Shown piece after piece: positions 1 to 41,380 of a DNA stretch of 64,000 bases (the first letter of the stretch is position 1; each line of letters opens with the position of its first letter). The stretch comes from a virus (lineage: Duplodnaviria > Heunggongvirae > Uroviricota > Caudoviricetes). The stretch covers positions 15,927 to 79,926 of IMG/VR virus record IMGVR_UViG_3300046786_000370. One strand, 5' to 3'. Both the position numbers and the translations under genes were made by a program. The notes beneath the pieces are model-generated. The model had not been told where the DNA came from, made no database searches, and saw only the letters and a program-made list of their open reading frames with translations.

Positions 1-40
1 GTTGATAGCAAAATTCAAAAGGCCATTGACAATCCATTGG

Positions 41-712
41 CTAATAAGTAATAGCGGCTTTAACTAGACTATCTATACTATTAACAATGGGCACACCATT
101 TTCTTCTGTTATCTTAATAGCCAAAGGCAGTTCTGTACAACCAAGTACAACTGCTTTTGCGCCTCTATCTATCAAACTTTGAATTACTGTCATTAACATA
201 GCATATGATTTAACCAAGTCTCCGGCTTTAATCAATTCTATAGAAGGCTGAACTAATGTAGTTATTTCTTCTTGACTAGGAACAATACACGCCCAATCAG
301 TTAAACGATTTTGATACAATTCAGATTGTATTGTACCTTGTGTGGCTATTATTCCAATGGTGCCAACGACATTAATATCACGCAACTCATTGGCAACACT
401 ATCCACAATATGAACAATAGGAACTTTAAGCTTGACTAATTCGTCATACCAGTAATGTGCTGTATTACAGGGAATAACAACCATACTACAGCCAACTGCT
501 TTTAATACCTGTATGCCTTGTAACAAGTATGGTAATGGTCTATCATCGCCATTGCGAATACTTGTGCTTCTATCTGGTATTCTTGGTTCATTCCATAATA
601 CAAATGGAATATGTTCTTGGTCACAACTTGCGGGAGTTTGTTGTATTAATCGTGTTACATACTCGGCACTGGCTGCCGGGCCCATGCCACCTAGTACGCC
701 TATGCGTTTCAT
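41..712 (-). CDS. aspartate racemase (Asp/Glu racemase family)
   Basis: Starts MKRIGVLGGMGP and carries CNTAHYW, the two conserved racemase blocks; 223 aa. Confidence 0.75.
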   Translation of the reverse strand: MKRIGVLGGMGPAASAEYVTRLIQQTPASCDQEHIPFVLWNEPRIPDRSTSIRNGDDRPLPYLLQGIQVLKAVGCSMVVIPCNTAHYWYDELVKLKVPIVHIVDSVANELRDINVVGTIGIIATQGTIQSELYQNRLTDWACIVPSQEEITTLVQPSIELIKAGDLVKSYAMLMTVIQSLIDRGAKAVVLGCTELPLAIKITEENGVPIVNSIDSLVKAAITY

Positions 713-1311
713 TTCTTAAATAATAGAGAAGAAGCAATAACCATCGCAGTCTGTGCCGCTTCTACATCATCTGGTTTTTCTTTCCAGCCTACACTAATCT
801 GTCCTATAAACACACCAGGTTCTGCAGGAACGCTGATACGACACATATAGTTTACTCCGTATTCTTTATATACAAATCCAATAAGACTTTGTGGTTTAAG
901 ATATGGGCTACATGGAATCTTACCAGACATTAAACCTATAACGTCATTGTTGTTGTCATAGTTTTTAGAAAACAGTCCAACTTCTAATCCGTCATTTCGT
1001 TTATCTCTGCCGCCACTGCGAGTAGATAAAAAAACTACCTTACGTGTATTGATTAGTGTATTAACTTCTAAGAACGCAACCATCTCTGCGTCTGTATTCT
1101 TTAATAAGAAATTTAATGCTTCTTCATACTTGCCGTTCATCTTAGGTAATGCTTGTTGAGCACGGTAGGATGCCATAAAAGCATCCTTTTCTGTGTAAAT
1201 GACCCAGCCACCAAATCCTAATATACAAAGGAAGACAACCGTGAATAGGCGAAATGGACTTTCGCCTATATATGTTAATAAACCTAATAAAAAGTCTTTA
1301 AGCTTGTCCAT
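709..1311 (-). CDS. hypothetical membrane-anchored protein
   Basis: ORF with N-terminal TM segment; start moved to the internal Met to avoid overlapping the symporter. Confidence 0.4.
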   Translation of the reverse strand: MDKLKDFLLGLLTYIGESPFRLFTVVFLCILGFGGWVIYTEKDAFMASYRAQQALPKMNGKYEEALNFLLKNTDAEMVAFLEVNTLINTRKVVFLSTRSGGRDKRNDGLEVGLFSKNYDNNNDVIGLMSGKIPCSPYLKPQSLIGFVYKEYGVNYMCRISVPAEPGVFIGQISVGWKEKPDDVEAAQTAMVIASSLLFKK

Positions 1312-2572
1312 GCTCTTTTTCGGTCTCGCAGACAAATGCGGTTACTGCTACATTGCCGTGTACATGGCTTGCTGTGCGAATCATATCCATCAATGGATCA
1401 ACTGCGATCAACAATACCAACACAGCTTCACTTGGTAGTTTTAACAAATCACAGACAACTGCTACAGTGGCAACTGTTAGAATACCTGTTGTACCTGCTG
1501 ATGCCAGACCAGCAAGGATACTACCAAATAATACAACTAACAATCCTGTTACACCCAATGGTGCGTCATAGATGTTAGCAATGAATACTGTAGCGATAGC
1601 ATAGTAAACAATACTACCAATACGGTTAACAGTGAAACTTAGTGGAACCGTTAACTCAACTCCACCTTTGTCAAACTTCAACTTGTGTAGTGCTTCCTGT
1701 GCGTATGGGATACAAGCCAATGAACTACGTGAGCTAACAGCAACAATTAATGTTTCTTTAGTTTCTTTAATAACAGTAGCAAGACTTAAACCGCTTCTTG
1801 CCCAAATTACTGCTGTACCTGCGGCAATAACTAAGAAACCGCCAATTGCTTGTTGCATTACAAAGTCAAACATGGTCATAAAGATACCAACGCCAACTTT
1901 ACCTACTTGCGCTGAAATCATTGCTAATAACGCAATAGGTAGAAAGTAGTTTAGGAATTTGAATATGCTAATACTTGCTTGTTGAATACTTTTTAGTACT
2001 TCAACTAACATCTTTTGGCCTTCTGTTTGTAAGTGTCCAAGAGCGACACCGAATATCAAACAGAAGATAACGATCTTCAAACTTTCACCGTTGTTTAGTG
2101 TATTGAAAATGTTTTCTGGAATAAACTTCTCTGCCATCTTGCCTGCACTAACAGTCGGAGCAACTGGCATTGGTTCTTTTAGAGTGATATTCAGGTCAGT
2201 GCCACTGTCTTTGTCATTGACTAAAACACCGAGTTGTGTTTTCTTTTCCGGAGTCATTTCAGATCCAGTAACTACAACTGTGCCTACACCAATAACTGCG
2301 GCAATAAACATACTACTGACAAAGCCTACGATAATTCTACGAATTAATGTTTGACTGCCTTCTTTTTGTAGCAAACCAATGATACCAACTAGAATAGTTG
2401 CTAACAAGAATGGTAGCACAACTACCTTTAGCAAACTAATATAGATACTACCGATACTTTCAAAGTTCATGCTGAACTCGGGAGCATATACTCCACTTAA
2501 TATACCTACGATGATTGATCCTAAAATAGTCCAAGGACTAACCAGGAAACTTTTTAAATGTGCTGTTGTCAT
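1298..2572 (-). CDS. dicarboxylate/amino acid:cation symporter (DAACS, GltP/DctA-like)
   Basis: 424 aa polytopic protein with the Gly-rich hairpin-loop regions typical of the Na+/H+-dicarboxylate symporter family. Confidence 0.7.
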   Translation of the reverse strand: MTTAHLKSFLVSPWTILGSIIVGILSGVYAPEFSMNFESIGSIYISLLKVVVLPFLLATILVGIIGLLQKEGSQTLIRRIIVGFVSSMFIAAVIGVGTVVVTGSEMTPEKKTQLGVLVNDKDSGTDLNITLKEPMPVAPTVSAGKMAEKFIPENIFNTLNNGESLKIVIFCLIFGVALGHLQTEGQKMLVEVLKSIQQASISIFKFLNYFLPIALLAMISAQVGKVGVGIFMTMFDFVMQQAIGGFLVIAAGTAVIWARSGLSLATVIKETKETLIVAVSSRSSLACIPYAQEALHKLKFDKGGVELTVPLSFTVNRIGSIVYYAIATVFIANIYDAPLGVTGLLVVLFGSILAGLASAGTTGILTVATVAVVCDLLKLPSEAVLVLLIAVDPLMDMIRTASHVHGNVAVTAFVCETEKEHGQA

Positions 2573-2581
2573 GATGTGTCC

Positions 2582-3400
2582 TTATTTCTTTTCAGCTTTA
2601 TATCTGTCCATTAACTTTTTAGTGTCAATGTTACTGTATTCATTTTTAATAACGTAATTAACAATGCTTAACAATTGAACAGCTCGTGGGTTTACCGCTA
2701 TAGCAATGTTGTCTACGCTGTCTGAAATCGTAATACTCTTAGTTGTAATTGCCGCGTCTGGTTTTTCAAAACTAATTTTCTTAATTTCAAACTCATCACG
2801 ATAAGCGGCTGCAATCTCGCCCTTAGTAACTTTATCAATGATCACATCCCATTTATCTTCAGGAAGGAATGTTGCGTTAGGGAAGTTTATGCGAGCAAAT
2901 GTATCATAACTTGAATTGCGAATAAAACTTATCTTGCCATTGAACTCTCTGATGACTTGATAAACTTCTCGACCCTGACTGTTATAACTTAACCATAAGC
3001 GATTAATAACTAAACTTTGTCTTAGTTTAACATAAGGATCGCTAAATCTAACAACTTGTAAACGTGGTCCTGTAACAGACAATTTACTAACTGCTATGTC
3101 TGCACGACCGTCTCTAACCTGTTCTACAACTTCTGCAAAACTTTCTGCATCGCGTCTAAATTGTACTGGTACTCCAAGTAGGACACCAATTCGTCGCGCG
3201 ATCTCGACGTCAAGACCTCGAATATCGTCACCTTCTCCTGAGAAGAATGGTGGAACATCTTTTTTGGTCATTGCTACAACAAGAACGTTGGCTTTCTTAA
3301 TTGCGGCAATATCTGCGGGTAGTGGTACTGTTGATGTCGGCATCTGAGCAGATGCTAATGACGTAACTAGTACAAAAAGTAGAGTGAATAGTTTTTTCAT
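2582..3400 (-). CDS. periplasmic amino-acid-binding protein (family 3 solute-binding)
   Basis: Signal peptide MKKLFTLLFVLVTSLASA followed by a family-3 SBP-like fold; 272 aa. Confidence 0.55.
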   Translation of the reverse strand: MKKLFTLLFVLVTSLASAQMPTSTVPLPADIAAIKKANVLVVAMTKKDVPPFFSGEGDDIRGLDVEIARRIGVLLGVPVQFRRDAESFAEVVEQVRDGRADIAVSKLSVTGPRLQVVRFSDPYVKLRQSLVINRLWLSYNSQGREVYQVIREFNGKISFIRNSSYDTFARINFPNATFLPEDKWDVIIDKVTKGEIAAAYRDEFEIKKISFEKPDAAITTKSITISDSVDNIAIAVNPRAVQLLSIVNYVIKNEYSNIDTKKLMDRYKAEKK

Positions 3401-3448
3401 AGTAATTATATTTATGCTTAATTACTATAAGTATACTGACAACCAATA

Positions 3449-3853
3449 TTACGGGGCTGTAGTAATTTTGTAACTTCCTTCGGGTCTGGCACTATCCCTG
3501 CCAAACAATCTAACACCAAACCATGCGGTCCATGCGCTTACTGGGTTCATCCCATCTTTTCTACAGAATTTACGCATAATCATGTCAGCAGTAGCTCTAT
3601 AATTACGATTAAGCCCATATTCACGCATAAGTTGATAAAGCGCATCATGGACTAATGCGCCTCTCATAAAGTTTTTTGTATCAATAGTGGGACCGCTTGG
3701 GCCATCCCAAGCGTATCCTTTTCTAATTAACAAAGATCCATTGGGACCAAGTTCTATAAAAGGGCTAATAATGTATTCACCAAAGATTTCAACTTCTGTT
3801 ATAAAATCTTTTTCTAGTTGATACTTGTAGCCCCGTGAATATGTTATTTTCAT
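3449..3853 (-). CDS. DUF1353-like protein
   Basis: YAWDGPSGP...VHDALY motif block. Confidence 0.45.
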   Translation of the reverse strand: MKITYSRGYKYQLEKDFITEVEIFGEYIISPFIELGPNGSLLIRKGYAWDGPSGPTIDTKNFMRGALVHDALYQLMREYGLNRNYRATADMIMRKFCRKDGMNPVSAWTAWFGVRLFGRDSARPEGSYKITTAP

Positions 3854-3856
3854 AGT

Positions 3857-4447
3857 TTACATGAATAAGAATACACCCTGAGCACTTAACAACATGCCAA
3901 GGCCAGCAACAAAAAAGCTACCCCAGAACATTGGCATACTGACAGCAAGAATACTTGCTGATAATACAACAATACTCAATTGATACATTGTACTAGCATA
4001 ACCAATCCACGGGCTACGTTTCTTGGCTTCGTCACGTTCAGCTTCTAATGCTCGTGCCTTTTCCATTAGCTCTTTCTTACCTTCGCCAGTCTTAGGATCA
4101 CTTTCGTAACGGTCAATCTTGGCCTGTAGCTTTTCAGCTTTGGCTGTGTCTTTACGATAAACAGCATCATCTAAACTTTGTTCAGCTAGAGTTTGTTTAA
4201 TACTCTTAGCTTGATAGAATGCCCAAATATTGTTTGAGGAAATAGTGTTGTTTAAGGTCTTACTGCTTAAAGTACCACCATACCAGCTGTTAACTGCTAG
4301 TAATAAAGCGAATACAGAAATGACCATACCTGCTTTGTCTTTTAGTTTAGCTTCGCGTTCGCTACGTGAACCGACTGGAGGCTTAGGTGCGTCCGGATCC
4401 TTTGGTTGTTTGTTAATTAAATTTAATACTGAATCTATCAATGCCAT
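3857..4447 (-). CDS. membrane protein with coiled coil (DUF4337-like)
   Basis: N- and C-terminal TM segments flanking a Lys/Glu-rich coiled coil. Confidence 0.35.
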   Translation of the reverse strand: MALIDSVLNLINKQPKDPDAPKPPVGSRSEREAKLKDKAGMVISVFALLLAVNSWYGGTLSSKTLNNTISSNNIWAFYQAKSIKQTLAEQSLDDAVYRKDTAKAEKLQAKIDRYESDPKTGEGKKELMEKARALEAERDEAKKRSPWIGYASTMYQLSIVVLSASILAVSMPMFWGSFFVAGLGMLLSAQGVFLFM

Positions 4448-4459
4448 TTTACTTTCCTT

Positions 4460-5335
4460 TTATAATCCACTGGCACCAGTAGTTGCCCATTCGCGAGCAC
4501 CACTTGGTAATGTGCGTTCACAGGCTAGTTGAGCCACTAATGTAGTCACCACACCTGCTACTACAGCCGCACAGCTTTGTGGTACAATCATTGCACCAGC
4601 TGCCGCATCCATTGACTTAGCCAATGTAAATGCGATCGCGTCTGTTAAAATTTGTTTGTTTGAATTGCCAATAGCTTTACGAATATCTGAACTGATCCAA
4701 ATTAATTCAACGAAAGCTGCCGCAGTTAAATCACAGGCAGCACCTAATGCCACAGCACCTACTGTTTCCTTAGCACTTAGATAAAGAATAGCCGTTGAGC
4801 TTAGTGGCGCCGTAGCCGCAGTAGTTGTTGCTTGACTGCTTGGTTCAGGGCGATATAGTAAAGCCGCAAAGATTGTGCCTAATGCGATACTGACACCAAT
4901 TTGGCAGTAGTTAGCTTCTACCCATTCAGCAATAAGTTCGCCACCTTGTTGGACAGCATACACGCCTTGTTTGGCACCTTGCTCCATGGCCCTGACAGCA
5001 AGTTTACTGCCAGCTTCAACGTCATTTAATGCGGCGCCAGCAACTTTGGCAGTGACCATGGCATTACGAGTAGCAATAGTCTTAGCCTGACCTGCTGAAC
5101 TAACTGCTATGTTCTTAACATTGTTTACAGTTTCGTTGGCAAAGTTAGTTGCTTCACTTGTTACGTTACCTGCTGTATCAACAATAGTTCTACCGGCAAC
5201 ATTAACTGCTTTGGTAGTTTCTTTTGCTACTGTGTTGGCAGTATTAGTAACTGTGTTGGCAACTGTGTTAGCCGCACCTGTTACGGCATTTGATACACTT
5301 TTCCAGCTTTTCTTTTTAAACGGATTCCATCCCAT
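4460..5335 (-). CDS. Ala/Thr/Val-rich hypothetical protein
   Basis: 291 aa ORF with low-complexity ANTVANTVTNTANTV repeats. Confidence 0.4.
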   Translation of the reverse strand: MGWNPFKKKSWKSVSNAVTGAANTVANTVTNTANTVAKETTKAVNVAGRTIVDTAGNVTSEATNFANETVNNVKNIAVSSAGQAKTIATRNAMVTAKVAGAALNDVEAGSKLAVRAMEQGAKQGVYAVQQGGELIAEWVEANYCQIGVSIALGTIFAALLYRPEPSSQATTTAATAPLSSTAILYLSAKETVGAVALGAACDLTAAAFVELIWISSDIRKAIGNSNKQILTDAIAFTLAKSMDAAAGAMIVPQSCAAVVAGVVTTLVAQLACERTLPSGAREWATTGASGL

Positions 5336-5556
5336 GATTATTTTTCCTTTTTAGCCTTGGGCTTTTTTGGTCCGGCTTCTTCAGCCTTCTTTTTAATTTC
5401 CTCTAGAATAGGACTAGAAGTTCTGTGTGGGTGTGTCTTTTCAGGCTCTTTAATATGCGGACGTCTTTTAAACCAACTCATATAAGCTCCTTAATATATA
5501 GTTATTTAGTAGGTTTTGGTTATAGCTATAGATAAATAATCATATAGGAGTCCATT

Positions 5557-6192
5557 ATGGAATTTACATTTGATTTTACTGCTGAACAATTAGCTCAGTG
5601 TATTACTAAGAACAAAAACCCGCAAGAATGGTATGAGGGTTTATACGAACAGCTACCAAAGTTTGCTATCGTGACACCTGCTCGTGTTGCTGGTTTTATC
5701 AGCCAATGCCAACATGAAAGCGCAGACTTTACTATTCTTACAGAAAACCTAAACTACGGTGCTAAAGGTTTGATGGGTATTTTTAAGAAATACTATCCAG
5801 ACGAAGCATTAGCCAAAGCACATGAACGCAAGCCACAGTTAATTGCTAATCGCGTTTACAGTGGACGCATGGGCAATGGGCCAGAATCCAGCGGAGATGG
5901 TTGGAAGTTCAGAGGGCGCGGCCTAGTTCAACTTACAGGTCGCAGTAACTACACACAATGTAGCAGAGACTTGTTTGGAGATGATTGTTTAGTTGATGAT
6001 CCAGATTTGTTGTTAAATCCAGAATGGGCCATTTTAAGTGCCTGCTGGTTCTGGCATAAGAATCGTTTAAATGATATCTGCGACAAGGGCGATGTTGTAT
6101 TACTAAGCAAACGCATTAATGGCGGTACAATTGGCCTTGCTGACCGTATCCATCACTGGAATAAGTGTCTGGAATTATTTGAGCCACATTAA
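5557..6192 (+). CDS. GH19 chitinase-like endolysin
   Basis: QCQHES...NY...GDGWKFRGRGLVQLTGRSNY, the GH19 catalytic signature; followed by a hairpin terminator. Confidence 0.75.
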   Translation: MEFTFDFTAEQLAQCITKNKNPQEWYEGLYEQLPKFAIVTPARVAGFISQCQHESADFTILTENLNYGAKGLMGIFKKYYPDEALAKAHERKPQLIANRVYSGRMGNGPESSGDGWKFRGRGLVQLTGRSNYTQCSRDLFGDDCLVDDPDLLLNPEWAILSACWFWHKNRLNDICDKGDVVLLSKRINGGTIGLADRIHHWNKCLELFEPH

Positions 6193-6362
6193 TGGAACAA
6201 TACATGGATGATTATGAAAGTTACAAGCGGTTCACTGCCGCTTGTAAATGTTCGGTTTGTAGTTGCCGACATCATTGTGGATCAAGTTGCAAGTGTGATA
6301 CTTGCCCTGACTGCGAATGTGAGCATTGTGTTACCAATGACGAATCACTCCGGCAACAATAA
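6192..6362 (+). CDS. small Cys-rich protein (metallothionein-like CxC repeats)
   Basis: 56-codon ORF whose start overlaps the endolysin stop (TAATG); CKCSVCSCRHHCGSSCKCDTCPDCECEHC. Confidence 0.35.
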   Translation: MEQYMDDYESYKRFTAACKCSVCSCRHHCGSSCKCDTCPDCECEHCVTNDESLRQQ

Positions 6363-6401
6363 AAATATTAGTTATAATATAACATAAGACAATACAAGAG
6401 C

Positions 6402-6431
6402 GGATAATAGCAATTTTATCCGCTTCTTTGT
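6402..6431. terminator. hairpin GCGGATAA-N8-TTATCCGC followed by a T-rich run
   Basis: Sits in the convergent gap between the endolysin and isocitrate lyase genes. Confidence 0.45.
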
Positions 6432-6479
6432 CTGTGGCTCCAGATTTTTCACCTAGAGCCTTTGCCCACAACCTCCACA

Positions 6480-7691
6480 TTAATGGAACTGATCTGCTTC
6501 TGTTGAATTGGCCAATGCTGTAGTCGATGTCGCACCAACTGCTGTGGCAATAGCATCAAAGTAAGGAACACCTGCTTCACGTTGGTGACGTACAGTTGTA
6601 AACTTACTATTGTTTCCTGTAGCGAATTCTAATTGTTGTAAATCAGAATACGCACCCATACCTTCTTCAGCATAGGCCTTAGCAAGACTAAATGTAGCTA
6701 GGTTAACTGAGTGGAATCCTGCAAGTGTAATGAACTGGAACTTATATCCCATCTTACCTAATTCAATTTGGAACTGTACACATTCTTCACGTGTCAAATG
6801 CTTACGCCAATTAAAACTAGGACTACAGTTATAAGCAAGCATTTGTTCAGGAAACTCAGCGTGGATGGCTTCAGCAAACTTGCGAGCTTGTGCCAAATCA
6901 GGCGTCGAAGTTTCAAACCATAAGAGATCAGCGTAAGGGGCATAAGCAAGACCTCGCCCAATACAAGCATCAATGCCGTTTTTAAATTTGTAAAAACCTT
7001 CTTCAGTACGTTCATTGATAATAAACTCCTTATCCAATGGATCGTGGTCGCTGGTAATCAGCGTGGCGGCTTCGGCATCAGTGCGAGCCATAATAACTGT
7101 GTCAACGCCTGCTACATCTGCGGCTAAACGTGCGGCATTTAATGTACGAATCATTTGACTTGTTGGTACAAGTACTTTACCACCTAAGTGACCGCATTTC
7201 TTTTCACTTGCCAATTGATCCTCAAAGTGTACGCCCGCGGCACCTGCTTCAATCATTGCTGTCATAAGTTCGTATGCGTTCAATGCGCCACCAAAGCCAG
7301 CTTCGGCATCAGCAACAATAGGAAGGAAGTAATCAGTTTCAACTTTACCTTCCAGGAATTCAATTTGATCAGCACGACGGAAAGCATTATTAATACCTTT
7401 AACAACTTTTGGCACACTATCAACAGGATACAAACTTTGATCCGGATATGTTGTGTTAGCAGTATTGTTAGCGGCAGCAACTTGCCAGCCGCTCAAGTAA
7501 ATTGCTTTCAATCCTGCTTTAGCATGTTGTACTGCCATTTGGCCATTGTAAGCACCTAGCGTGTTTACATAGTCTTCATTGGCTAATAGTTCACGCAACT
7601 TGGCGGCGCCACGTTTAGCTAACGTGTGTTCGATTAATACGCTACCTTGTAGTCGGCGTACATCTTCTTGTGTGTAGTTTCTCTTTTTCAT
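6480..7691 (-). CDS. aceA: isocitrate lyase
   Basis: KKCGHLGGK catalytic signature; 403 aa. Confidence 0.8.
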
Positions 7692-8372
7692 TTAGTTTCC
7701 TTTAATTTTAGTTCTATAATACTGTTTAGCGGTTAAAATAATTCCGCCTGCCCAAGGCAATATGTTTTCATAAAAGTCGTGCATCGGATCAAGATGATTA
7801 TCAATAAAAGGTTCGTGTACAATCATTTTAATTGCTACTACATATAATACAAATGCTCCAACAAAAATACTATCAGGATACTTGTCCATAATCTTAGAGA
7901 CTAATGTACTACCAAACAAGATAATAGGAACACTAACTAATAAACCAAATATAATCAACAACCAATTGCCACCAGCGGCTCCTGCAATAGCTAGAGCATT
8001 GTCAAGACCCATTACAGCGTCAGCCATAACGATCGTACCCATAGCACCCCAGAATGTAGTAGCGGCTTTAATATTATTATGATCTTCATTAGATGAAGTT
8101 AGTTTCCAAGCAATATAAATTAACATCAATCCACCAACTAATCTAAGTCCTGGAATCATCAGCAAATAAGTTAATGCGGCCACACAAACAAATCTAACTG
8201 CTACAGCACCAAAGGTACCCCATAGCATAGCACGTTTACGCAAATGTTCTGGCAGTTGTTTAGCCGCCATAGCAATGACTAATGCGTTTTCACCACCTAG
8301 AACTACGTCGATTAATATAATGGCTAGTAAAGCCCAAATAAATTCCATCATACAAACAAGTCCTCGTTCCAT
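7692..8372 (-). CDS. TerC-family integral membrane protein
   Basis: Duplicated GGENALVIA and DNALAIAGAA motifs; polytopic. Confidence 0.6.
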   Translation of the reverse strand: MERGLVCMMEFIWALLAIILIDVVLGGENALVIAMAAKQLPEHLRKRAMLWGTFGAVAVRFVCVAALTYLLMIPGLRLVGGLMLIYIAWKLTSSNEDHNNIKAATTFWGAMGTIVMADAVMGLDNALAIAGAAGGNWLLIIFGLLVSVPIILFGSTLVSKIMDKYPDSIFVGAFVLYVVAIKMIVHEPFIDNHLDPMHDFYENILPWAGGIILTAKQYYRTKIKGN

Positions 8373-8851
8373 TCACGATGACCTTCTCTGAAAGCCATAT
8401 TGCTTTGAGTTTCTCTAACTTCTACTCTATAGCACCACAAACGTTCTGCTTCACCTGGTCCCCACATCTCAGGGATATAAACTCCGTTAACATACTTATA
8501 AAGCATGTCGCTAAGACCCTCACAGCCCAGTCTAGGTAATACAACTACCTTGGCCATTTTCTTAGCTTCTAACAGTTTATAAGTTTCCATTTCTGGATCA
8601 TCTGCTGCCACAATAAGTGTATGATCAAATTGATCTTCTAGTGTTTTCTTTAGTTCTTTAAGCCCGCCATAGTCAGCGGCCCAATTGCGAACATCCAAGT
8701 TATCAGTACCAAAGTAAAACTTCATGCTAAACGAATAGCCATGTATTAGATTACAGTGACTATCAGCTCTCCACTGGCGATAAGCGCAAGGGAATGCATC
8801 GTGATATTCTTTTGTACTAGTGTACTTGTATGTTATAGGTTGATTTGCCAT
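8348..8851 (-). CDS. 6-pyruvoyl-tetrahydropterin synthase / QueD-like
   Basis: HCNLIHGYSF aligns to the QueD/PTPS zinc-site motif CxxxHGHSF. Confidence 0.5.
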   Translation of the reverse strand: MANQPITYKYTSTKEYHDAFPCAYRQWRADSHCNLIHGYSFSMKFYFGTDNLDVRNWAADYGGLKELKKTLEDQFDHTLIVAADDPEMETYKLLEAKKMAKVVVLPRLGCEGLSDMLYKYVNGVYIPEMWGPGEAERLWCYRVEVRETQSNMAFREGHREWNEDLFV

Positions 8852-8943
8852 CTCTAGTCTCCTTTAATAAGTAGCAAGTTTGACGACATGCAGAATTTAT
8901 ATAGCGGGGTGAATGACGTTGAAAAGGCCGCTGTCAATACTTA

Positions 8944-9777
8944 TTACGGCCTGCCTATTAGCATGACCCTTTTGTATCCTTTTAACTGTAGTTCTCCTTC
9001 AAAAAAGATTTCTTTCATAGGGAACTTCTTTTTCATATGATCCACACTATGAACACAATTAATGTGCTCAGGTATATCAAATAAATTATTACTTTGAATG
9101 GCTACAATAGGATTGCTTTCCAATTCTTTAAAACGAATTTGGTGAAACCATTCTTCACTCATATGCTCAGCACTGGTATTGATGATTAAATCTGGTAAAA
9201 ACTTTTCGCTGTACTTTGTGCTATCTTTGAAGTTTTCCACATCCCATTCGTAGCCATTTTTGTGCAGTGTTAATTCATTTATATTTGCGTTAACTGCTTT
9301 AACTTTATAGTTTTCTAAATTTGTAATGTTAAAAATATAGTCACTGGTTTCGCAGGCTTCTTTGTCTAATTCTATTATACGCATTTTACTGTATGTAAGA
9401 CGCTTGTCGTATATTGTTTTAATTTGACCAAACCATCCTGCCATAACTGCTACATTGTCATAGTTAGAATTAATCTTAGCCAACTCTTCTACCAGCCATA
9501 TTTTGCTACGCATTTGACTACGACTCATTGCATCTTGTATTGGCAAACCTTCATGCTTTTCTTTTAAGTAATTATTAATACCCCTGAAGATTTTATCATT
9601 GGGATTTCTTTTAGAAATAATTCTAACATAGCAAGCCAGCAATGCTTCTTCTATATTGTCAGTACCAAAAGCTTTGCCTATTTCGTTGGTAAGATATACA
9701 TCTTCATCGCTGTTACCGCAAAACTTTAAATACTCTTCTAAACCAAAGAATACTTCTCTAACACTTGTATTTTCCAT
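8944..9777 (-). CDS. hypothetical protein
   Basis: 277 aa ORF with no confident motif. Confidence 0.4.
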   Translation of the reverse strand: MENTSVREVFFGLEEYLKFCGNSDEDVYLTNEIGKAFGTDNIEEALLACYVRIISKRNPNDKIFRGINNYLKEKHEGLPIQDAMSRSQMRSKIWLVEELAKINSNYDNVAVMAGWFGQIKTIYDKRLTYSKMRIIELDKEACETSDYIFNITNLENYKVKAVNANINELTLHKNGYEWDVENFKDSTKYSEKFLPDLIINTSAEHMSEEWFHQIRFKELESNPIVAIQSNNLFDIPEHINCVHSVDHMKKKFPMKEIFFEGELQLKGYKRVMLIGRP

Positions 9778-10340
9778 TATTTTCTCTCAGGATATTTTGT
9801 TATATTTAGATTTCTAAAACAACTTTGTAAGGCAACAATTTGACTCCAACAATCCCAAGCGGCATGGTGTAGTCGAGGATTAGGACGCTCATGTTCTACA
9901 AGTCCATATACAGTTCTAGTATCTTTAACTTGCCAATACTGCCAAGGAAAACCTCTATGTAATTGTTTACAGACTTCTTCTAAAATAACAATATCAAAGG
10001 CAGGACCATTGGCCCACATTGTATTGTAGCCCCCGCACCAACGATGAAAGTCACGCATTACTTCTTGTATAGGATGTCTGTCTTCTTCTGTAAATGCTTC
10101 AAACTGAACTTCGGGACTTTGTTTAGCCCACCATGCTAGTGTATTATCATCAATATGTGCCGTGGGCCAATTAAAACTTTCGGGATCAATTCTACGATAA
10201 AATGTATCCATTAGAATAGTATCACCTTCAAAACTTTCACGGTCGTCGGCAAAAGGATCAAAGCGAATCGCGCCGATTGTAATTACTACACTTTGTGGTG
10301 TGGTGGCTAGAGTTTCGATGTCCACCATTATGTCTGCCAT
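9777..10340 (-). CDS. DEDDh 3'-5' exonuclease (RNase T-like)
   Basis: MADIMVDIETL...HHAAWDCW acidic and His blocks. Confidence 0.6.
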   Translation of the reverse strand: MADIMVDIETLATTPQSVVITIGAIRFDPFADDRESFEGDTILMDTFYRRIDPESFNWPTAHIDDNTLAWWAKQSPEVQFEAFTEEDRHPIQEVMRDFHRWCGGYNTMWANGPAFDIVILEEVCKQLHRGFPWQYWQVKDTRTVYGLVEHERPNPRLHHAAWDCWSQIVALQSCFRNLNITKYPERK

Positions 10341-10341
10341 A

Positions 10342-10575
10342 TTATGCCTTTGTTTGTTTACGTTCGAGGTCCTGCCAGGCTTCCTCTTCTTCTATTGTAA
10401 CACCAGGAAGTTGTTTTGTCAACTGCCAAGAACCGTTACCCAAATCTTTCCATTCCAGTATGTCACCTTCTTTCCAGCCAGTTTGGGCTAAAAGGTCTGC
10501 AGGAAACTCTAACATAGAATCGCCAGTTTTTGGATCTTCTTTTACGTCTAATACCCAACTTGTTTTATTCGTCAT
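10342..10575 (-). CDS. hypothetical protein
   Basis: 77 aa ORF tightly packed in the operon. Confidence 0.35.
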   Translation of the reverse strand: MTNKTSWVLDVKEDPKTGDSMLEFPADLLAQTGWKEGDILEWKDLGNGSWQLTKQLPGVTIEEEEAWQDLERKQTKA

Positions 10576-11062
10576 GTTTAATTACCTCTACTCCGCTTTG
10601 TTTAAGGAATTTGATTCCCGAATCATCACGATAGTCCGCACTATAATACACCCTGCGAATACCTGACTGAAAAATAAGTTTGGAACATTCCATACAAGGA
10701 GCGTGAGTAACAAATATGTCAGCGCCATCACCACTATCGTTAGACTTCGCCAATTTTGATACAGCATTTGATTCAGCATGTAATACCTCTGGTCTTGTTT
10801 TTAATTTGTAACGCCCATGTTCGTCTTCTAAGGGATATTCTTTGTAGGAATAAGCAAAGTAATTACCGTCGAAGTCTCTACTCAAATCGTAGTCTTTATA
10901 TTCGCAGTCGTTTTCCCAACCTGCGGGCATACCATTGTAGCCCATGCTGATAACTCTATCATCTTTGACAATAACTGCGCCAACTTGTAGTCTACGAGCA
11001 TGACTCATTTTGGCTACTTCATGGGCGATATTATTGTATAATTTTTGGAACTTAGGTTTCAT
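10565..11062 (-). CDS. dCMP deaminase
   Basis: HAESNA and PCMECSKLI zinc motifs. Confidence 0.75.
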   Translation of the reverse strand: MKPKFQKLYNNIAHEVAKMSHARRLQVGAVIVKDDRVISMGYNGMPAGWENDCEYKDYDLSRDFDGNYFAYSYKEYPLEDEHGRYKLKTRPEVLHAESNAVSKLAKSNDSGDGADIFVTHAPCMECSKLIFQSGIRRVYYSADYRDDSGIKFLKQSGVEVIKHDE

Positions 11063-11307
11063 TGTCTTAGCTTTAAATTAAGTGTGAAGTTTTCAACTAC
11101 TAATTTGGTAATTGTTGCCAGCATTATTGTTGTACGTTCATCTGGGTCCATGTCAGCCCATGTTGTATTATACTGCTCTAATAGTCCTGTCGCAATCATT
11201 TCTGTGGCCATGTTTTCATCTACTGCCAACATACCCCAATCAATTGGATCTTCGCTGTCTATTTCCTTGACTAAATCAAGAATATCAGTTACTGTGACTT
11301 TAACCAT
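11059..11307 (-). CDS. hypothetical protein
   Basis: 82 aa acidic ORF. Confidence 0.35.
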   Translation of the reverse strand: MVKVTVTDILDLVKEIDSEDPIDWGMLAVDENMATEMIATGLLEQYNTTWADMDPDERTTIMLATITKLVVENFTLNLKLRQ

Positions 11308-11792
11308 TCTAACATTCGTTCAGCTGAAGTGTTTTCAATTACACTAAAATCATCAGAGGTATGATGTTCAATTAATTCATTTTTAACAACTACAGCATAT
11401 CTAATTGATCTTACACTAAGTCCTTGATGTGTAAAATCCTGCTCTAATTTGTGTGCTCTAATAAAGAAAGCATCACCATCTCCGTAGAATTCCACAGCAG
11501 AATCGGGCACTGTTTCTTTAACGTGCTTGTCAAAATGATTCATAACAAAAGCATCTTGACAATACAGGCCATAAACATTGTCCACATATTTCAGCATTTC
11601 TCTGCTGAGTTTTGCGTAAGCTATGGCCTGCTCTGTGTCTAGTCTACTAAATGGCGCTGGACCTGCAAAAATAACAACACGTTTGTCCATGAGCAAATCC
11701 CTTGTCGGAACTGCTTGATGTACGCCGGAGGCATTTATTTTATAAACTGCACCAGCGCCAATCATGTCGCCTATTTTTAGGTCAAATGCCAT
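11289..11792 (-). CDS. hypothetical protein (possible redoxin-like fold, no Cys)
   Basis: 167 aa ORF. Confidence 0.35.
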   Translation of the reverse strand: MAFDLKIGDMIGAGAVYKINASGVHQAVPTRDLLMDKRVVIFAGPAPFSRLDTEQAIAYAKLSREMLKYVDNVYGLYCQDAFVMNHFDKHVKETVPDSAVEFYGDGDAFFIRAHKLEQDFTHQGLSVRSIRYAVVVKNELIEHHTSDDFSVIENTSAERMLEWLKSQ

Positions 11793-12464
11793 TTATTTTC
11801 TGTCTCCAAATAGATTTAGCAAGTTAATAAACAAGTTAATGAAATCCAAATACAATGTTAGTGCTCCACGAATCTCAGCAATACCGTCATTGTCATAACT
11901 AACTTCTTCGCGAATCTTTTGTGTGTCATAAGCTGTTAAACCCAAAAAGATAATAATTGCCAATGCGCTGACCACTGTTTGCATTACTGTGCTACCAATA
12001 AAGATATTAACAATACTGGCAATACAAATCGCAATTAAACCAATAAACATAAACTTGCCCAGACTGTCTAGACTTTGTTTAGTAAAGTATCCGTATCCAC
12101 TCATTACAGCAAACAAAATGGCGGCGCCCATAAAGGCGCTTACAATACTACCCATAGTGAATAGCGCAAATATTGTAGCAAAACTTAGACCCATTAATGC
12201 GGCAAAACCATGTAAACAAAGTTGGGCCATACCTTTAGTAGGGCTTGCGTTTAGTAAAATAGTTACACCAAAGATTGCTACCAATGGCGCAAAGATTACA
12301 ATCCATTTCATTACACCTGTAAAGAAAAATTGTAGTAGTTCTGGACTAGTACCTACAAAATAACTGACTAGCATACTAACAATAACTGCTAGGCTCATGT
12401 AGCCATAAACACGGCCCATGGCTGAGTTAATTTCACTGGCACTTCTATAAACTGCGTATTCCAT
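11793..12464 (-). CDS. Bax inhibitor-1/YccA family membrane protein
   Basis: 7-TM profile; N-terminus MEYAVYRSASE... Confidence 0.55.
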   Translation of the reverse strand: MEYAVYRSASEINSAMGRVYGYMSLAVIVSMLVSYFVGTSPELLQFFFTGVMKWIVIFAPLVAIFGVTILLNASPTKGMAQLCLHGFAALMGLSFATIFALFTMGSIVSAFMGAAILFAVMSGYGYFTKQSLDSLGKFMFIGLIAICIASIVNIFIGSTVMQTVVSALAIIIFLGLTAYDTQKIREEVSYDNDGIAEIRGALTLYLDFINLFINLLNLFGDRK

Positions 12465-12469
12465 TTTGA

Positions 12470-12793
12470 TTACCTTTCTAAAAGATCTCGTTTGTTGGGT
12501 TTACCATCCCATTGTTCAGCATCAGGCAAAGGTTCCCGTTGCTTGGTAATTTTAGGCCAAATCTTGGCCAATTCTGCGTTAATGGCTATAAATTCTCGTT
12601 GACTGTCCGGAATATCCAAGTCAGCGTGAATTGCTTCAGCCGGACATTCTGGTACACATACCGCACAGTCGATACATTCATCGGGATTGATTGCTAGAAA
12701 GTTTGGCCCTTCTACAAAGCAATCCACTGGACATACTGCCACGCAATCTGTATATTTACATTTGATACAATTCTCAGTTACTACGAATGTCAT
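12470..12793 (-). CDS. 7Fe ferredoxin (FdxA type)
   Basis: [18 protein letters not shown]...[12 protein letters not shown]; near-canonical Azotobacter-type ferredoxin I. Confidence 0.85.
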
Positions 12794-12956
12794 TATTATT
12801 TTCCTGTACTTCTATAAATGTTATTTGTTCGTTTACTTCTACAAATCCGCCACATCTTTGGCAGATTACATCTGGTTCTCCGGAGTCACGTGAAAAGGCA
12901 TAACCACATTTTGGGTTAGTACAATGCAGACTCCATTTGCTTATAGGTTGTTTCAT
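12774..12956 (-). CDS. zinc-ribbon small protein
   Basis: CTNPKCG...CQRCGG. Confidence 0.4.
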
Positions 12957-12964
12957 TCATCTAT

Positions 12965-13360
12965 TTACCTACGCATACTTGAAATAGACTTAGCTTCGTC
13001 GTCAGAGAAGATAGGTACGCTATTACTTTTATGCATAACTCCAATACCCAGCATCTTAGTGCCTGTATATTGTGGTGCTTCCTTACTGCTAATAGCACCC
13101 GTATGCCCCGTATCGCGGCTTTTAATGTTGTGGGTGGTACTGCGGCCTGCCGGAGCTGTTAAAGTGTACTGTAGGGGCTCTGCTGTCATTGCTCTACGAC
13201 GTTTCTTTTCATCCGCGTCAATGCCCCACTTCTTTTGAAGCTCACGCCAATCTTCGTCTAATTGCCTAGCTTTTTGGGCTTCGGCGCTGTTACGAAACTT
13301 AACTTTACCCTTGCGTTTGCCACCAAGTGACAGCGCAGGATGCGCTAAATGCATAGTCAT
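12965..13360 (-). CDS. hypothetical basic protein
   Basis: 131 aa ORF with a promoter module just upstream. Confidence 0.4.
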   Translation of the reverse strand: MTMHLAHPALSLGGKRKGKVKFRNSAEAQKARQLDEDWRELQKKWGIDADEKKRRRAMTAEPLQYTLTAPAGRSTTHNIKSRDTGHTGAISSKEAPQYTGTKMLGIGVMHKSNSVPIFSDDEAKSISSMRR

Positions 13361-13383
13361 ACTAATACTCCTATAATGCTATA

Positions 13384-13412
13384 ATTATAGCAGAATATTC
13401 AATTTGTGTCAA
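13384..13412 (-). promoter_or_regulatory. sigma70-like promoter TTGACAcaaatt-N17-TATAAT
   Basis: Exact -35 and -10 hexamers with a 17-nt spacer, upstream of the 12965..13360 gene. Confidence 0.6.
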
Positions 13413-13413
13413 T

Positions 13414-13665
13414 TTATTTGGATAAGTTATAAAGCATGATTGCTTCGTCTAAGGCCCGTTTAATTGTGGGATTAGTTTTTGCGGCTCTGCGTATGTTGCC
13501 CCACAATTTGCTTTCTTCTATCTCTTCCCTAAGGCTCTTAGAATCTTCGCTTTCCCATGCTAGCTTTCTACTTTGTACAGGACTGCCGGGCTCACGCATA
13601 TAAACGGTTTTGCCTCCATCTGGACTTTCGTAGATAACGGCTTCTGTAATTTTATTAACTATCAT
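13414..13665 (-). CDS. hypothetical protein
   Basis: 83 aa ORF. Confidence 0.35.
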   Translation of the reverse strand: MIVNKITEAVIYESPDGGKTVYMREPGSPVQSRKLAWESEDSKSLREEIEESKLWGNIRRAAKTNPTIKRALDEAIMLYNLSK

Positions 13666-14063
13666 TTATCGTCCCACGCTTGCGGAGTTGTCATTTGCTC
13701 ATTGTAAGTCTTAATAAGATCTTTCCAATCACCGATGTCCACTCTGAAATTAAAGTCCATGCCACGATCGCCTACTGTAATACGAACAGCATTGAAATGA
13801 ACTTTCTTCATGACAAACCAATATTGTCCAGCTTTTGATTTCAATTGAACTCCCCATTGTTCATTGGCAGGGTCAATTATATCATAGCCAGCAAATATAT
13901 GTTTAATTTCTTCATGAGTTAGTTTGTACGTAAGTACCAAACTTTTAGTAACCATGATACTCAAATCACAACGATCTGAATTCTTATAAGCATAAAGCTT
14001 GAATGTATCTTTAAATTCTTTAAACACTGAAACTACTCCCGCAACCGCAACTTGTTTGTGCAT
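13662..14063 (-). CDS. hypothetical protein
   Basis: 133 aa ORF. Confidence 0.4.
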
Positions 14064-14343
14064 TAGGATTTTGAATTACAAAATTACTACCTTCAAAATC
14101 TTCTTTGTAATCAATTGTAGCACCTTCTAAGTACTGCATACTCATTGCGTCAACAAGATATTTAACACCCTGCTGTTCAATGATAAAATCATCTTCATTT
14201 TGTACTGTTTCAAGTGTAAAGCCATACTGCATTCCGCTACAGCCTCCACCTTGAACGAATACTCTTAAACTAATGTTCGGATTATTTTCTTCTTGTAGTA
14301 TTTCTGCTACTTTTGTGTTCACGTTTTCTGTAATTGTAATCAT
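14020..14343 (-). CDS. Fe-S cluster insertion protein (IscA/ErpA/HesB family)
   Basis: GGGCSGMQY...CGCGSSF signature. Confidence 0.8.
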
Positions 14344-14344
14344 T

Positions 14345-14863
14345 TTAATTCTCCACTATCATCACTAAATGTAATCTTTTTTCTGTACTTCCATTCATGA
14401 AAGTATGCGGTTTAGTTGTATCCACCCACGTTGTACGACCATCTGCCGGCAAATGAAACATGACCATTGGATCTGTAATTAAAAAATTACATTGTGTATT
14501 AGTTACCAATGGCAAATGTAGTCTGGGACTATAGTCTTTGTGAATACTATAACATCCTTTTTCACGGGCTAACATTATTCTTGCTCTATACACAGGCACT
14601 GCCAGCCATTTAAAATAATCATCTATAGCAGTGCCTATTAGGCTAGGCTGTAAATGACAGAATTTATGTTCCCAGTCTTTAGTTTTAGCTGTACTATGTC
14701 CTGTGCCAGCTAACCAATTATCCACTGAAGGATCATCAGTTTGAATAGAAACTTGCCCGTCGGATCTATATTCCCAATCAACATATAATTTTGCTAGTTT
14801 TACGCATTGCTCGACTACTTCATTATAGCGAGGATACGCTGGCTTAAATTCTTTGTATAACAT
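14345..14863 (-). CDS. small 2OG-Fe(II)/cupin oxygenase (paralog family)
   Basis: [13 protein letters not shown], an HxD...H arrangement. Confidence 0.45.
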
Positions 14864-14871
14864 ACAATTAT

Positions 14872-15372
14872 TTATGAAAGTATGATATCCACTGCGGCAT
14901 CTTCACTGATATAATCATCAGTAGTAAAATGCGGATATTTCGCAAGAATTTTTGCTGTGCCTACATAAGCAAACCATCTATAATCAACTTTGCATTTTGC
15001 TACTTCAGCATAATGCTCTGACAGATATTTTAATGACGATTTCTCAGCATGATAATATCTAAGATGTCTATATTGCATACCAGTTAGTGAGTCATATTGT
15101 GCAATTCTACTGCCCACATTGATAATTCTTTTTTCAGGCAAATCTATCCAAGCATTTAACATATCAATTAACATATATGATTGTGCAAAATTTTCTGTGG
15201 CATTGTTTATAAACACGTCACAGTCGTAGCTTTCGTCGACAATTCGTTGCCTATCTTTTTTCTTATTAATGTCATAACCAGTGCTTCGACTGAATCCAAT
15301 TGAATTTGGGCTCAATCGTTCGAATGCTCTGAGTCCAATTCCTTCAGTATGGCCTGTAATCGCATATTTCAT
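14872..15372 (-). CDS. SDR-like NAD(P)-binding protein (paralog of 60945..61532)
   Basis: ITGHTEGIG glycine-rich N-terminus. Confidence 0.4.
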   Translation of the reverse strand: MKYAITGHTEGIGLRAFERLSPNSIGFSRSTGYDINKKKDRQRIVDESYDCDVFINNATENFAQSYMLIDMLNAWIDLPEKRIINVGSRIAQYDSLTGMQYRHLRYYHAEKSSLKYLSEHYAEVAKCKVDYRWFAYVGTAKILAKYPHFTTDDYISEDAAVDIILS

Positions 15373-16040
15373 TTATGTGCTATCCTTATACTAACGCCTA
15401 ATTTAGATTTACTCATCATTCTTCCTGTAGAATGTATGTGCTGACTGTCAAATACTATAGCTGATCCCGGAGTCCAGGAATATGCTGTTCCGCTCATGCT
15501 ATAAAAATAGTCACGTTCGAAGTGTTGACTGTCTATGTGTTGCCAAATTTCCTGGGGTAATTCAGTATTTGTACCACCTTGGAAAAATTCCCCATCACAG
15601 GGCCTTGAATTTGTTTTCTTATTACTGTAGAAATCACCGTCAATTTCAAAATTGCCTAGCCATGTAATATTCTTACCCTGCCAACGTTGATCAAATACAA
15701 TAAACTTTTGATCCTCTCTGGGCTCAAATCTTTGAATTGGTATAACAATATTCAACCATGCTTTATCTTCTATAGCGTCACAATGTGGAAAGTAACTGTG
15801 ACTGTGCTTATAAAAGTTGTCGCCTACAATTTTGTAGGGTTCATTTATGTTCAATTTGCGTTCAATCAAATTTGTAGCAAATTCATTGAATTCAATTTCG
15901 TCAAATGGCAACAATACTTTGTCCATGCCATGGCTGAATATGTGGTCATGACTGAGAAATATTTGCTTTAAATATTCTAATTCTGAATCAGTGACAATAT
16001 TTTCAACTAATTTGTGCATGTGTTTATTTAAGCCACGCAT
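15369..16040 (-). CDS. hypothetical protein (possible oxygenase)
   Basis: PHCDAIED...QHIHSTG looks like a loose HxD...H motif. Confidence 0.35.
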   Translation of the reverse strand: MRGLNKHMHKLVENIVTDSELEYLKQIFLSHDHIFSHGMDKVLLPFDEIEFNEFATNLIERKLNINEPYKIVGDNFYKHSHSYFPHCDAIEDKAWLNIVIPIQRFEPREDQKFIVFDQRWQGKNITWLGNFEIDGDFYSNKKTNSRPCDGEFFQGGTNTELPQEIWQHIDSQHFERDYFYSMSGTAYSWTPGSAIVFDSQHIHSTGRMMSKSKLGVSIRIAHK

Positions 16041-18588: not shown

Positions 18589-18591
18589 AAA

Positions 18592-41290: not shown

Positions 41291-41305
41291 TCTATTATTT
41301 ATAAG

Positions 41306-41380
41306 TGGTGCCACAGACTGGACTCGAACCAGTAACACAAGAATTTTCAGTCCTCTGCTCTACCATTGGAGCTACTGTGG
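41306..41380 (-). tRNA. tRNA-Phe (GAA)
   Basis: Loop CTGAAAA, D-arm GCTCCAATGGTAGAGC. Confidence 0.65.

Follow-up and report, generated by a model that had tools for sequence, protein, structure and literature searches.

An accessory-gene island of a jumbo phage with a putative amino-acid uptake and racemase cassette, an isocitrate lyase gene and a TerC-family gene

The region described here comprises the first 8,372 nucleotides (nt) of a 64,000-nt stretch of the IMG/VR virus record IMGVR_UViG_3300046786_000370 (positions 15,927–79,926 of that record). The whole stretch is referred to as the window, and all coordinates are window positions unless a contig is named. It is concluded, with a probability of about 75%, that positions 1–8372 are an accessory-gene island of a jumbo phage of about 360 kb, whose conserved backbone acquired three units separately, and that the units function as proposed below. 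The largest unit is a four-gene cassette encoding a family-3 solute-binding protein (SBP3), a carrier of the DAACS/SDF family, a single-pass membrane protein (orf208) and a two-cysteine amino-acid racemase. The other two units are a gene for isocitrate lyase (ICL) and one for a TerC/YjbE-family membrane protein. A sequence-only reading of the same DNA had earlier proposed a single virus-carried module for nutrient uptake and central metabolism. Family searches confirmed every gene that it had named (racemase, DAACS carrier, SBP3, ICL and TerC) where it had placed them, and the view that they are virus-carried was upheld; the single module was not borne out, as the three units are distributed independently of one another.

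Phage origin of the region

That positions 1–8372 are jumbo-phage DNA, and not flanking bacterial DNA, is supported by backbone genes on both sides of the cassette, by the recurrence of the cassette in viral contigs and by the absence of a shift in composition. Window positions 1–51 translate to VDSKIQKAIDNPLANK followed by a stop codon. Exactly these residues form the C-terminus of a backbone open reading frame (ORF) in the 360,465-bp ENA contig L152 (ERZ4227942 NODE_2), which is the closest relative of the window, in L111 and L083, and in over 15 further viral loci; the full-length backbone proteins (195–206 amino acids, aa) are 83–93% identical among themselves. Hence, the window starts within the backbone, and the presence or absence of the cassette reflects an indel between two genes of that backbone. 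In cassette-bearing contigs (L111, L083, L098 and others), the homologous backbone block comes after the racemase gene. L152 is collinear with window positions 3447–15000 and lacks both TerC and the four-gene cassette; in it, a 60-aa ORF comes after the DUF1353 gene, and next an opposite-strand block of 195, 813 and 464 aa, with 179 nt separating the DUF1353 gene from the backbone ORF. An exact search of metagenome contigs with the 58 nt at the left edge of the window gave no match, and therefore we infer the sequence left of position 1 from these relatives. Exact-sequence look-ups of the window ICL, of the racemase and of a 100%-identical match (P0001) returned no contig.

It had also been proposed that composition and gene packing match the rest of the window, and both parts of this claim held. 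The GC content of the cassette genes and TerC is 0.37–0.39, compared with 0.375 ± 0.037 for the other window genes, and their GC content at third codon positions (GC3) is 0.25–0.30, compared with 0.317 ± 0.052. Their distances in relative synonymous codon usage (RSCU) lie at the 48th–81st percentile of the other window genes. The ICL gene has a GC content of 0.428, at the 95th percentile of the window, and its GC3, at 0.307, is typical. Eleven closely packed genes of at least 130 aa occupy the first 8.4 kb, ten of them on the minus strand, and no att-like direct repeats were found around the cassette or TerC. The cellular homologues are distant, with identities of at most 47% for the racemase, about 34% for the carrier, about 40% for the binding protein and 60–68% for the ICL; the viral and metagenome homologues of the proteins are 54–99% identical. 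The relationships of the two enzymes agree with viral carriage, in that the phage racemases form a clade of their own and the ICL is 82–99% identical among phage and metagenome contigs. Phage-typical genes, those for the DUF1353 protein and the GH19-type endolysin, are located between the cassette and ICL (Table 1). Megablast of positions 1–8400 against deposited phages gave no match.

Over its full length, the window carries 34 clustered tRNA genes and has 79 of its 86 predicted genes on one strand. It contains no rRNA gene, the Rfam matches being to tRNAs only. A ClpP-like "head maturation protease" is encoded at 61849–62436 (phrog_94, E 8e-51), and a phage-type metallophosphoesterase is also present (phrog_1649, E 6e-54). 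Outside the close relatives of the window, some ICL-bearing contigs encode a DNA polymerase (phrog_262, E 1e-195), ribonucleotide reductase (RNR) and DNA ligase, and give a weak match to a virion structural protein (phrog_14154, E 1.3e-6).

Two other origins have to be weighed against this. Every gene of the region has cellular homologues and none is a virion gene, as would be expected if positions 1–3400, or the whole region, were host chromosome beside a prophage or part of an assembly chimera. Such an origin is barely credible in view of the backbone genes on either side of the cassette, the same cassette in about 35 viral contigs across several different viral contexts, the uniform composition without att-like repeats, and best cellular identities of only 34–47% for the cassette proteins. 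One point against a phage is that neither capsid, portal nor terminase genes were found in the window or in the examined flanks of its closest relatives, the nearest candidate being the ClpP-like protease; most ORFs are also without a family match. Both observations would suit another kind of large element that was misfiled in IMG/VR, for example a megaplasmid or the reduced genome of a symbiont. Against this stand the GH19-type endolysin (Table 1), the protease and the metallophosphoesterase, the clustered tRNA genes without rRNA, the short genes nearly all on one strand, and the replication genes and weak structural match of related ICL contigs, together with the 98 ICL genes counted in curated huge-phage genomes (10.1101/2025.02.27.640493). 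A misfiled non-phage element is accordingly considered very improbable, and the jumbo-phage origin is retained in what follows.

Independent distribution of the three units

The cassette was found intact, with a constant gene order, in about 35 IMG/VR contigs of up to 524 kb. The ICL matched 207 IMG/VR contigs, and 80 of these loci (L001–L080) were examined for gene context. None of the cassette contigs carries an ICL gene within 10 kb of the cassette, and the cassette is absent from all 80 examined ICL loci. When co-occurrence within 10 kb was scored in about 115 other contigs, none had both. Because no other examined locus carries the cassette together with ICL, the idea that the two are one co-inherited module was rejected. 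TerC was found in 24 IMG/VR contigs at 64–86% identity. The gene combination of the window occurs in no other examined locus; the region is an accessory-gene hotspot of three separately gained units and not a co-inherited functional unit.

The features of the region are listed in Table 1. Among the backbone genes, that for the 291-aa protein has a counterpart of the same length at the syntenic position of L152, where blastn gave no DNA match, and a protein homologue of 77% identity in L083. Over positions 1–9000, sigma-70-like promoter matches were fewer than in shuffled sequence (12 versus 24.3 ± 5), and terminator-like hairpins were more numerous (15 versus 6.5 ± 2.4).

Table 1 Features of window positions 1–8851 (Pfam gathering cut-offs: PF01177, 31 bits; PF00375, 27.9 bits; PF03741, 27.8 bits)
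Feature	Position	Strand	Evidence and remarks
Backbone ORF, C-terminus (195–206 aa family)	1–51	+	Last 16 codons and stop; converges on and overlaps racemase 3' end
Two-cysteine amino-acid racemase, last cassette gene	41–712	-	PF01177, E 1.6e-43, 149.4 bits
orf208, single-pass membrane protein	709–1311	-	No Pfam or NCBIfam match; phrog_31287 (function unknown)
DAACS/SDF carrier	1298–2572	-	PF00375, E 7e-66, 223 bits
Family-3 solute-binding protein (SBP3), first cassette gene	2582–3400	-	PF00497, E 2e-16
DUF1353 protein, backbone, right flank of cassette	3449–3853	-	PF07087; phrog_1158 "tail assembly chaperone", E 3.2e-23; collinear with L152
DUF4337 membrane protein, backbone	3857–4447	-	PF14235, E 2e-30; collinear with L152
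291-aa conserved hypothetical protein, backbone	4460–5335	-	No family match
GH19-type endolysin, backbone	5557–6192	+	phrog_181, E 3.8e-76; PF00182
56-aa cysteine-rich ORF, short, unverified	6192–6362	+	
49-aa hydrophobic ORF, unverified	6331–6480	-	Directly downstream of ICL; about 80% identity in 14 viral loci, downstream of ICL
Isocitrate lyase (ICL, AceA type)	6480–7691	-	NF011645, 680 bits
TerC/YjbE-family membrane protein	7692–8372	-	PF03741, E 6.5e-44, 150 bits; TIGR03717, 204.8 bits; phrog_7180
6-Pyruvoyl-tetrahydropterin synthase (PTPS)-like protein, backbone, right flank of TerC/ICL	8348–8851	-	Collinear with L152 9493–9999 (PF01242)

The four-gene cassette

The spacing of the cassette genes is very tight, with a gap of 9 nt between the SBP3 and carrier genes, an overlap of 14 nt between the carrier gene and orf208, and an ATGA overlap between orf208 and the racemase gene; for this reason, the four genes are almost certainly co-translated. 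The racemase, carrier and binding-protein genes had been described as consecutive. Their order was correct, but orf208, which lies between the carrier and racemase genes, had been missed.

The binding protein had been called a lipoprotein, and this was refuted. Its signal peptide, MKKLFTLLFVLVTSLASA, is of the signal peptidase I type and ends in ASA before a Gln residue, without a lipobox cysteine. In 33 phage homologues, the Gln at +1 is invariant and the hydrophobic core varies, cleavage falling between Ala and Gln or between Ser and Gln; a cysteine occurs in the first 40 residues of none of the 33. Since there is no lipobox cysteine at +1, the protein is predicted to be secreted and not to be a lipoprotein. 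Its best NCBIfam match, far under the cut-off, is to the N-terminal, SBP-like domain of MltF, a lytic transglycosylase. The invariant cleavage motif was presumed to point to a Bacteroidota host. This lead was dropped, as Shine-Dalgarno-like motifs stand before 35% of the genes compared with a background of 6%; the Bacteroidota -7 promoter motif TANNTTTG showed no enrichment in the window.

For orf208, an alternative TTG start is present at 1335. The protein has 606 metagenome homologues, all of them unnamed, and among cassettes it is found in phage ones only, being missing from the cellular SBP3-SDF-racemase loci. A profile search of the PDB gave no match. An AlphaFold2 model built with 21 close homologues had a predicted local distance difference test (pLDDT) score of 41.8 and was unusable.

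Cassette proteins are abundant in metagenomes, where single clusters at 90% identity have up to 672 member sequences. Neither the carrier nor the racemase has a close homologue in deposited phage genomes; the weak matches are gut fragments or bacterial contigs filed as phage. The INPHARED records AGRM01000005, AFYI01000007 and CAKLQH02/CAKLQF02 ("Acinetobacter phage MD-2021a") are bacterial whole-genome contigs of 0.1–0.5 Mb, and the matches of ICL, DAACS and racemase to them are therefore not evidence for phage carriage. The cassette is an auxiliary metabolic gene (AMG) operon that is not described in the searchable literature and is absent from deposited phage genomes.

Cellular modules with the same gene order as the phage cassette were found in Derxia gummosa, Derxia lacustris, Thiocystis minor and a betaproteobacterial metagenome-assembled genome (MAG). 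Their proteins are 37–40% (binding protein), 33–35% (SDF carrier) and 36–40% (racemase) identical to those of the phage. They differ from the cassette in lacking orf208, and the phage racemases fall in a separate clade. In the Derxia species and the MAG, the module has a second SDF gene and is set within a type VI secretion system (T6SS) cluster (L168, D. gummosa, 1243–19023; L163, D. lacustris; L173, MAG, 1643–18884), between ClpV/VgrG/MORN/DUF4280 genes on one side and TssK/TssL/TssM genes on the other.

The carrier and its possible dependence on a binding protein

The carrier aligns over its whole length with aspartate transporters, including 9BGZ, and is 87–95% identical in about 35 IMG/VR contigs. 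It shares the fold family PF00375 with the canonical DAACS carriers (GltPh, GltTk, GltP, DctA and the EAATs) and, like them, has a serine-rich helical hairpin 1 (HP1; SSRSS) and the Asp and Arg-Thr of transmembrane helix (TM) 8 (DMIRT). In GltPh and the EAATs, these TM8 residues bind the α-amino group and the acidic side chain of the substrate. It differs from the canonical carriers in TM7, where NRIGS replaces NMDGT, and in having His and Asn at the positions of GltPh N401 and D405. Its score is about 110 bits, compared with cut-offs of 510–640 bits for the DAACS equivalogs of NCBIfam. Among cluster representatives from a library of 1.84 billion proteins, about 118 of the 150 nearest to the phage carrier have Arg at the second position of the motif, and the subfamily with this xRxG motif comprises 317 representatives at E ≤ 1e-30. 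This arginine might take the place of a coupling Na+ ion.

In the examined loci, an SBP3 gene adjoins the gene of xRxG-type SDF proteins in 62 of 67 phage and 4 of 5 cellular cases, compared with none of 20 canonical N(T/L)DGS SDF genes lying beside racemase genes. In two fusion proteins, P0471 and P0481, a signal peptide leads into an SBP3 domain that is 33–34% identical to the phage binding protein (E 2e-41 and 4e-32), after which come an extra TM helix, with basic residues behind it, and the SDF domain. From this order of domains, the topology would be that of a periplasmic receptor tethered to a carrier with its N-terminus inside the cell. Four other SDF-SBP3 fusions weigh against a general receptor role: their weaker SBP3-like domain is C-terminal, without a linker TM helix, and would be cytoplasmic, so that SBP3 domains in the xRxG subfamily would not always be periplasmic receptors. 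Three further xRxG SDF proteins of about 1150–1200 aa (P0396, P0458 and P0467) have C-terminal extensions of about 750 residues.

Until 2025, before TAXI-GltS was added, TRAP and TTT carriers were the only secondary transporters known to use soluble binding proteins, and DAACS is not among the binding-protein-dependent families listed (PMC12344293). The phage pair resembles TRAP, TTT and TAXI-GltS in that a binding-protein gene is coupled to the gene of an elevator-type carrier and in that fusions of the two proteins support the link (PMC12344293). It differs from them in that the carrier is a DAACS protein, the binding protein is of family 3 and not DctP, TAXI or TctC, and the coupling is a prediction from gene order and fusions. 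It is tentatively suggested, at somewhat less than even odds, that the SBP3-DAACS pair belongs to an unrecognised class of binding-protein-dependent secondary transporters, defined by an xR(F/Y/I/V/L)G motif and an adjacent or fused SBP3 that would deliver an acidic amino acid to the carrier.

The racemase and its substrate

The catalytic cysteines of the racemase, C82 (PCNTAH) and C192 (LGCTE), are invariant in 10 phage homologues, and the enzyme is predicted to be a racemase of acidic amino acids that does not depend on pyridoxal phosphate (PLP). The sequence-only reading had called it an aspartate racemase; membership of the Asp/Glu family was confirmed, with both cysteines present, and specificity for aspartate was not. 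The best PDB matches are the aspartate racemases 3S7Z and 1JFL. Against aspartate counts the best NCBIfam match, which is to the CuyB cysteate racemase (NF052483; 215.6 bits, cut-off 190), compared with 169.6 bits for the generic model asp_race (TIGR00035). The CuyB model was passed by all eight cellular relatives tested, whatever their genomic context; hence, the match was rejected as proof of cysteate specificity.

In a scan of 185,579 species, each represented by a single genome, no racemase was more than 47% identical to that of the phage. In a rough neighbour-joining tree, the phage racemases group together as one clade, set off by a long stem. The wider racemase clade includes members encoded beside DcuA/B C4-dicarboxylate carriers (in Pasteurellaceae), LysR regulators and the β-aspartyl peptidase gene iadA (in Salmonella), and an SDF gene lies directly upstream of the racemase gene in 25 of 80 cellular loci. 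The Salmonella homologue STM4510 is located beside an orphan Hcp gene and iadA. Of the C4-dicarboxylate or amino-acid uptake that had been proposed for the cassette, an acidic amino acid is favoured over a C4-dicarboxylate. The most likely substrate of the racemase is aspartate, with cysteate as the main alternative. DAACS carriers take up D- and L-aspartate alike, and D-aspartate is common in dissolved organic matter.

If cysteate were the substrate, the cassette would be an organosulfonate module, in which the binding protein and carrier import L-cysteate, the CuyB-type racemase converts it to D-cysteate, and a host CuyA, the D-cysteate sulfo-lyase, then yields pyruvate, ammonium and sulfite; from the explanation preferred here it differs in the substrate only. 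Besides the CuyB score, there is a precedent in Bilophila wadsworthia, whose cysteate cluster combines an SDF transporter with CuyB, CuyA and RidA (PMC11193023). The phage cassette shares with this cluster the SDF carrier and the two-cysteine PF01177 racemase, but it lacks CuyA and RidA, adds SBP3 and a membrane protein, and has a carrier of the xRxG subfamily. PALP (CuyA-like) genes adjoin the racemase gene in L157 (44%) and L170 (41%), which belong with the closer relatives, and in L226 and L208. However, the CuyB model does not discriminate, since it also passes the racemases beside DcuA/B, LysR and β-aspartyl peptidase genes; neither the window nor 2.5 Mb of sequence from related viral loci contains a CuyA-like (PF00291, PALP) gene; and the rough tree does not place the phage racemases as sisters of the PALP-linked group. 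A role in organosulfonate use is therefore judged unlikely, though with an appreciable chance of being right. A different proposal is remodelling of the cell envelope, with the racemase making D-Asp or D-Glu that would be moved to, or sensed in, the periplasm so as to edit peptidoglycan, for example for the timing of lysis or a block to superinfection. A Peptidase_S11 (DD-carboxypeptidase-like) gene directly follows the cassette in L260 (12971–13666), and homologues are encoded no more than a few kb from the cassette in L084 (3701–4369), L090 (7767–8402) and L148; the MltF match of the binding protein, far below threshold as it is, and the placing of cellular SBP3-SDF-racemase modules in T6SS clusters point the same way. 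Yet neither the window nor most of the cassette contigs have Peptidase_S11, a binding protein with an elevator carrier is an architecture for import, and no ligase or transpeptidase accompanies the cassette, which leaves envelope editing with only a slim chance. Import of an acidic amino acid, most likely aspartate, followed by its racemization remains the preferred explanation of the cassette.

Isocitrate lyase

The ICL scores 680 bits with NF011645, for which the cut-off is 562, over profile positions 27–428 of 430. It is shorter than the cellular enzymes by about 25 N-terminal residues and otherwise aligns end to end with ICLs of solved structure; the catalytic signature KKCGH is present in the alignment to PDB 7CMX. 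From these features, the phage enzyme is predicted to be catalytically intact. It is 60–68% identical to AceA of actinobacteria, Azospirillum, enterobacteria and the PDB set, 82–93% identical in the 207 IMG/VR contigs and 99% identical in L152. A copy of 63% identity in the deposited phage C48C1 is annotated as hypothetical.

In 55–60 of the 80 viral loci, the ICL gene lies between the genes for the large and small subunits of RNR (e.g., L079 7620–9989 and L004 4740–5918). The window ICL is set differently, between the PTPS and TerC genes on one side and the endolysin gene on the other. This arrangement is common only to L001, L008, L012, L152 and L153 among the examined loci; the PTPS gene adjoins ICL in the first three and the endolysin gene adjoins it in the last two. 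An exact 15-nt direct repeat, CCACATTAATGGAAC, is located at 6184–6198, at the endolysin stop codon, and at 6475–6489, at the ICL stop codon, 291 nt apart from start to start. The two copies mark the stretch that holds the 56-aa and 49-aa ORFs, and the pair may be a recombination scar.

Phage ICL is an already reported kind of gene. The Huge Phage Genome Collection preprint lists 98 ICL genes in 98 huge phages, the freshwater ones being without malate synthase (10.1101/2025.02.27.640493), and aceA/aceB reads have been reported from ocean viromes (PMC4053976). Like the window ICL, the huge-phage enzymes are of the AceA type, occur in phages of at least 200 kb, including freshwater ones, and in the latter have no malate synthase alongside (10.1101/2025.02.27.640493). 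Rewiring of the glyoxylate shunt, as the sequence-only reading had it, is thus partly sustained: the ICL is present, and it is the only step of the shunt found. No malate synthase is encoded in the window, where no ORF is large enough for one and the longest (476 aa) is a radical-SAM protein, and this weighs against a complete phage-encoded shunt.

The TerC-family protein

The TerC protein is a full-length match above the curated cut-off of TIGR03717 (204.8 versus 134.8 bits) and belongs to the YjbE subfamily; its PHROG family, phrog_7180, shows that other phage copies exist. The start of the gene overlaps the upstream gene by 25 nt. Many cellular TerC members have an upstream yybP-ykoY (Mn) riboswitch, whereas none was found by Rfam upstream of the window gene, which is wedged between tightly packed genes. 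TerC is a lineage-specific, strain-level insertion between the PTPS gene and ICL.

Other genes of the window and its relatives

The rest of the window holds three radical-SAM genes (16024–17043, 31805–33235 and 40358–41338), four desaturase-like paralogues and many ORFs without a family match. The relatives encode further iron-sulfur (Fe-S) proteins, namely SufB, an IscA-like Fe-S assembly protein and a ferredoxin (L111 18211–19626; L152 4215–4535 and 5613–5936), and their SufB is 61% identical to sufB of Microcystis phage MaAM05. Judged by these genes, the lineage appears to be unusually rich in Fe-S proteins. Four window genes match phrog_35201 (19188–19928, 26032–26844, 47408–48166 and 48163–48942), and that at 26032–26844 also matches Pfam FA_desaturase; the four may be fatty-acid-desaturase-like paralogues.

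Megablast of positions 8400–33000 against deposited phages gave a sole, short match at 13438–13523 with 84–88% identity. The matching stretch is annotated as tRNA-Pro in Sinorhizobium and Rhizobium phages and as "hypothetical protein" in Agrobacterium phage Atu_ph07; at 13438–13523 itself, no tRNA was detected by ARAGORN or Rfam.

Proposed function and significance

The three units would act as follows. The cassette operon would be expressed early or in the middle of infection. The SBP3, exported by the Sec pathway, would capture an acidic amino acid in the periplasm and hand it to the divergent DAACS elevator-type carrier, which would import it; the phage-specific single-pass membrane protein orf208 would accompany the two. 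In the cytoplasm, the racemase would equilibrate the D and L forms, so that either enantiomer could enter host metabolism. The ICL would split isocitrate into succinate and glyoxylate and thus conserve carbon as C4 and C2 units, the malate synthase step of the shunt being supplied by the host. The TerC/YjbE protein probably handles manganese or another metal. The substrate, the direction of transport, the coupling of binding protein and carrier, and the benefit to the phage, such as the feeding of aspartate-derived nucleotide synthesis, are what we infer from the genes; the identities of the genes, their location in phage DNA, their recurrence in numerous phage contigs, the separate distribution of the units and the pattern of motifs and fusions are shown directly. 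A link of the cassette and ICL to nucleotide supply is plausible, because aspartate feeds pyrimidine and purine synthesis, ICL is usually located in the RNR operon in other phages and a dCMP deaminase gene lies nearby in relatives of the window.

The cassette would give the infected cell a complete, phage-supplied means of scavenging an acidic amino acid from a dilute environment and of inverting its stereochemistry. The phage-borne ICL enlarges the current view of how giant phages reprogram central carbon flow. If the proposed pairing of SBP3 and DAACS is true, jumbo phages would harbour a racemase along with all the parts of a high-affinity uptake system and would spread them. DAACS is the best-understood family of elevator transporters, and a binding-protein-dependent branch with an altered ion site would test whether elevator mechanics permit coupling to a binding protein.

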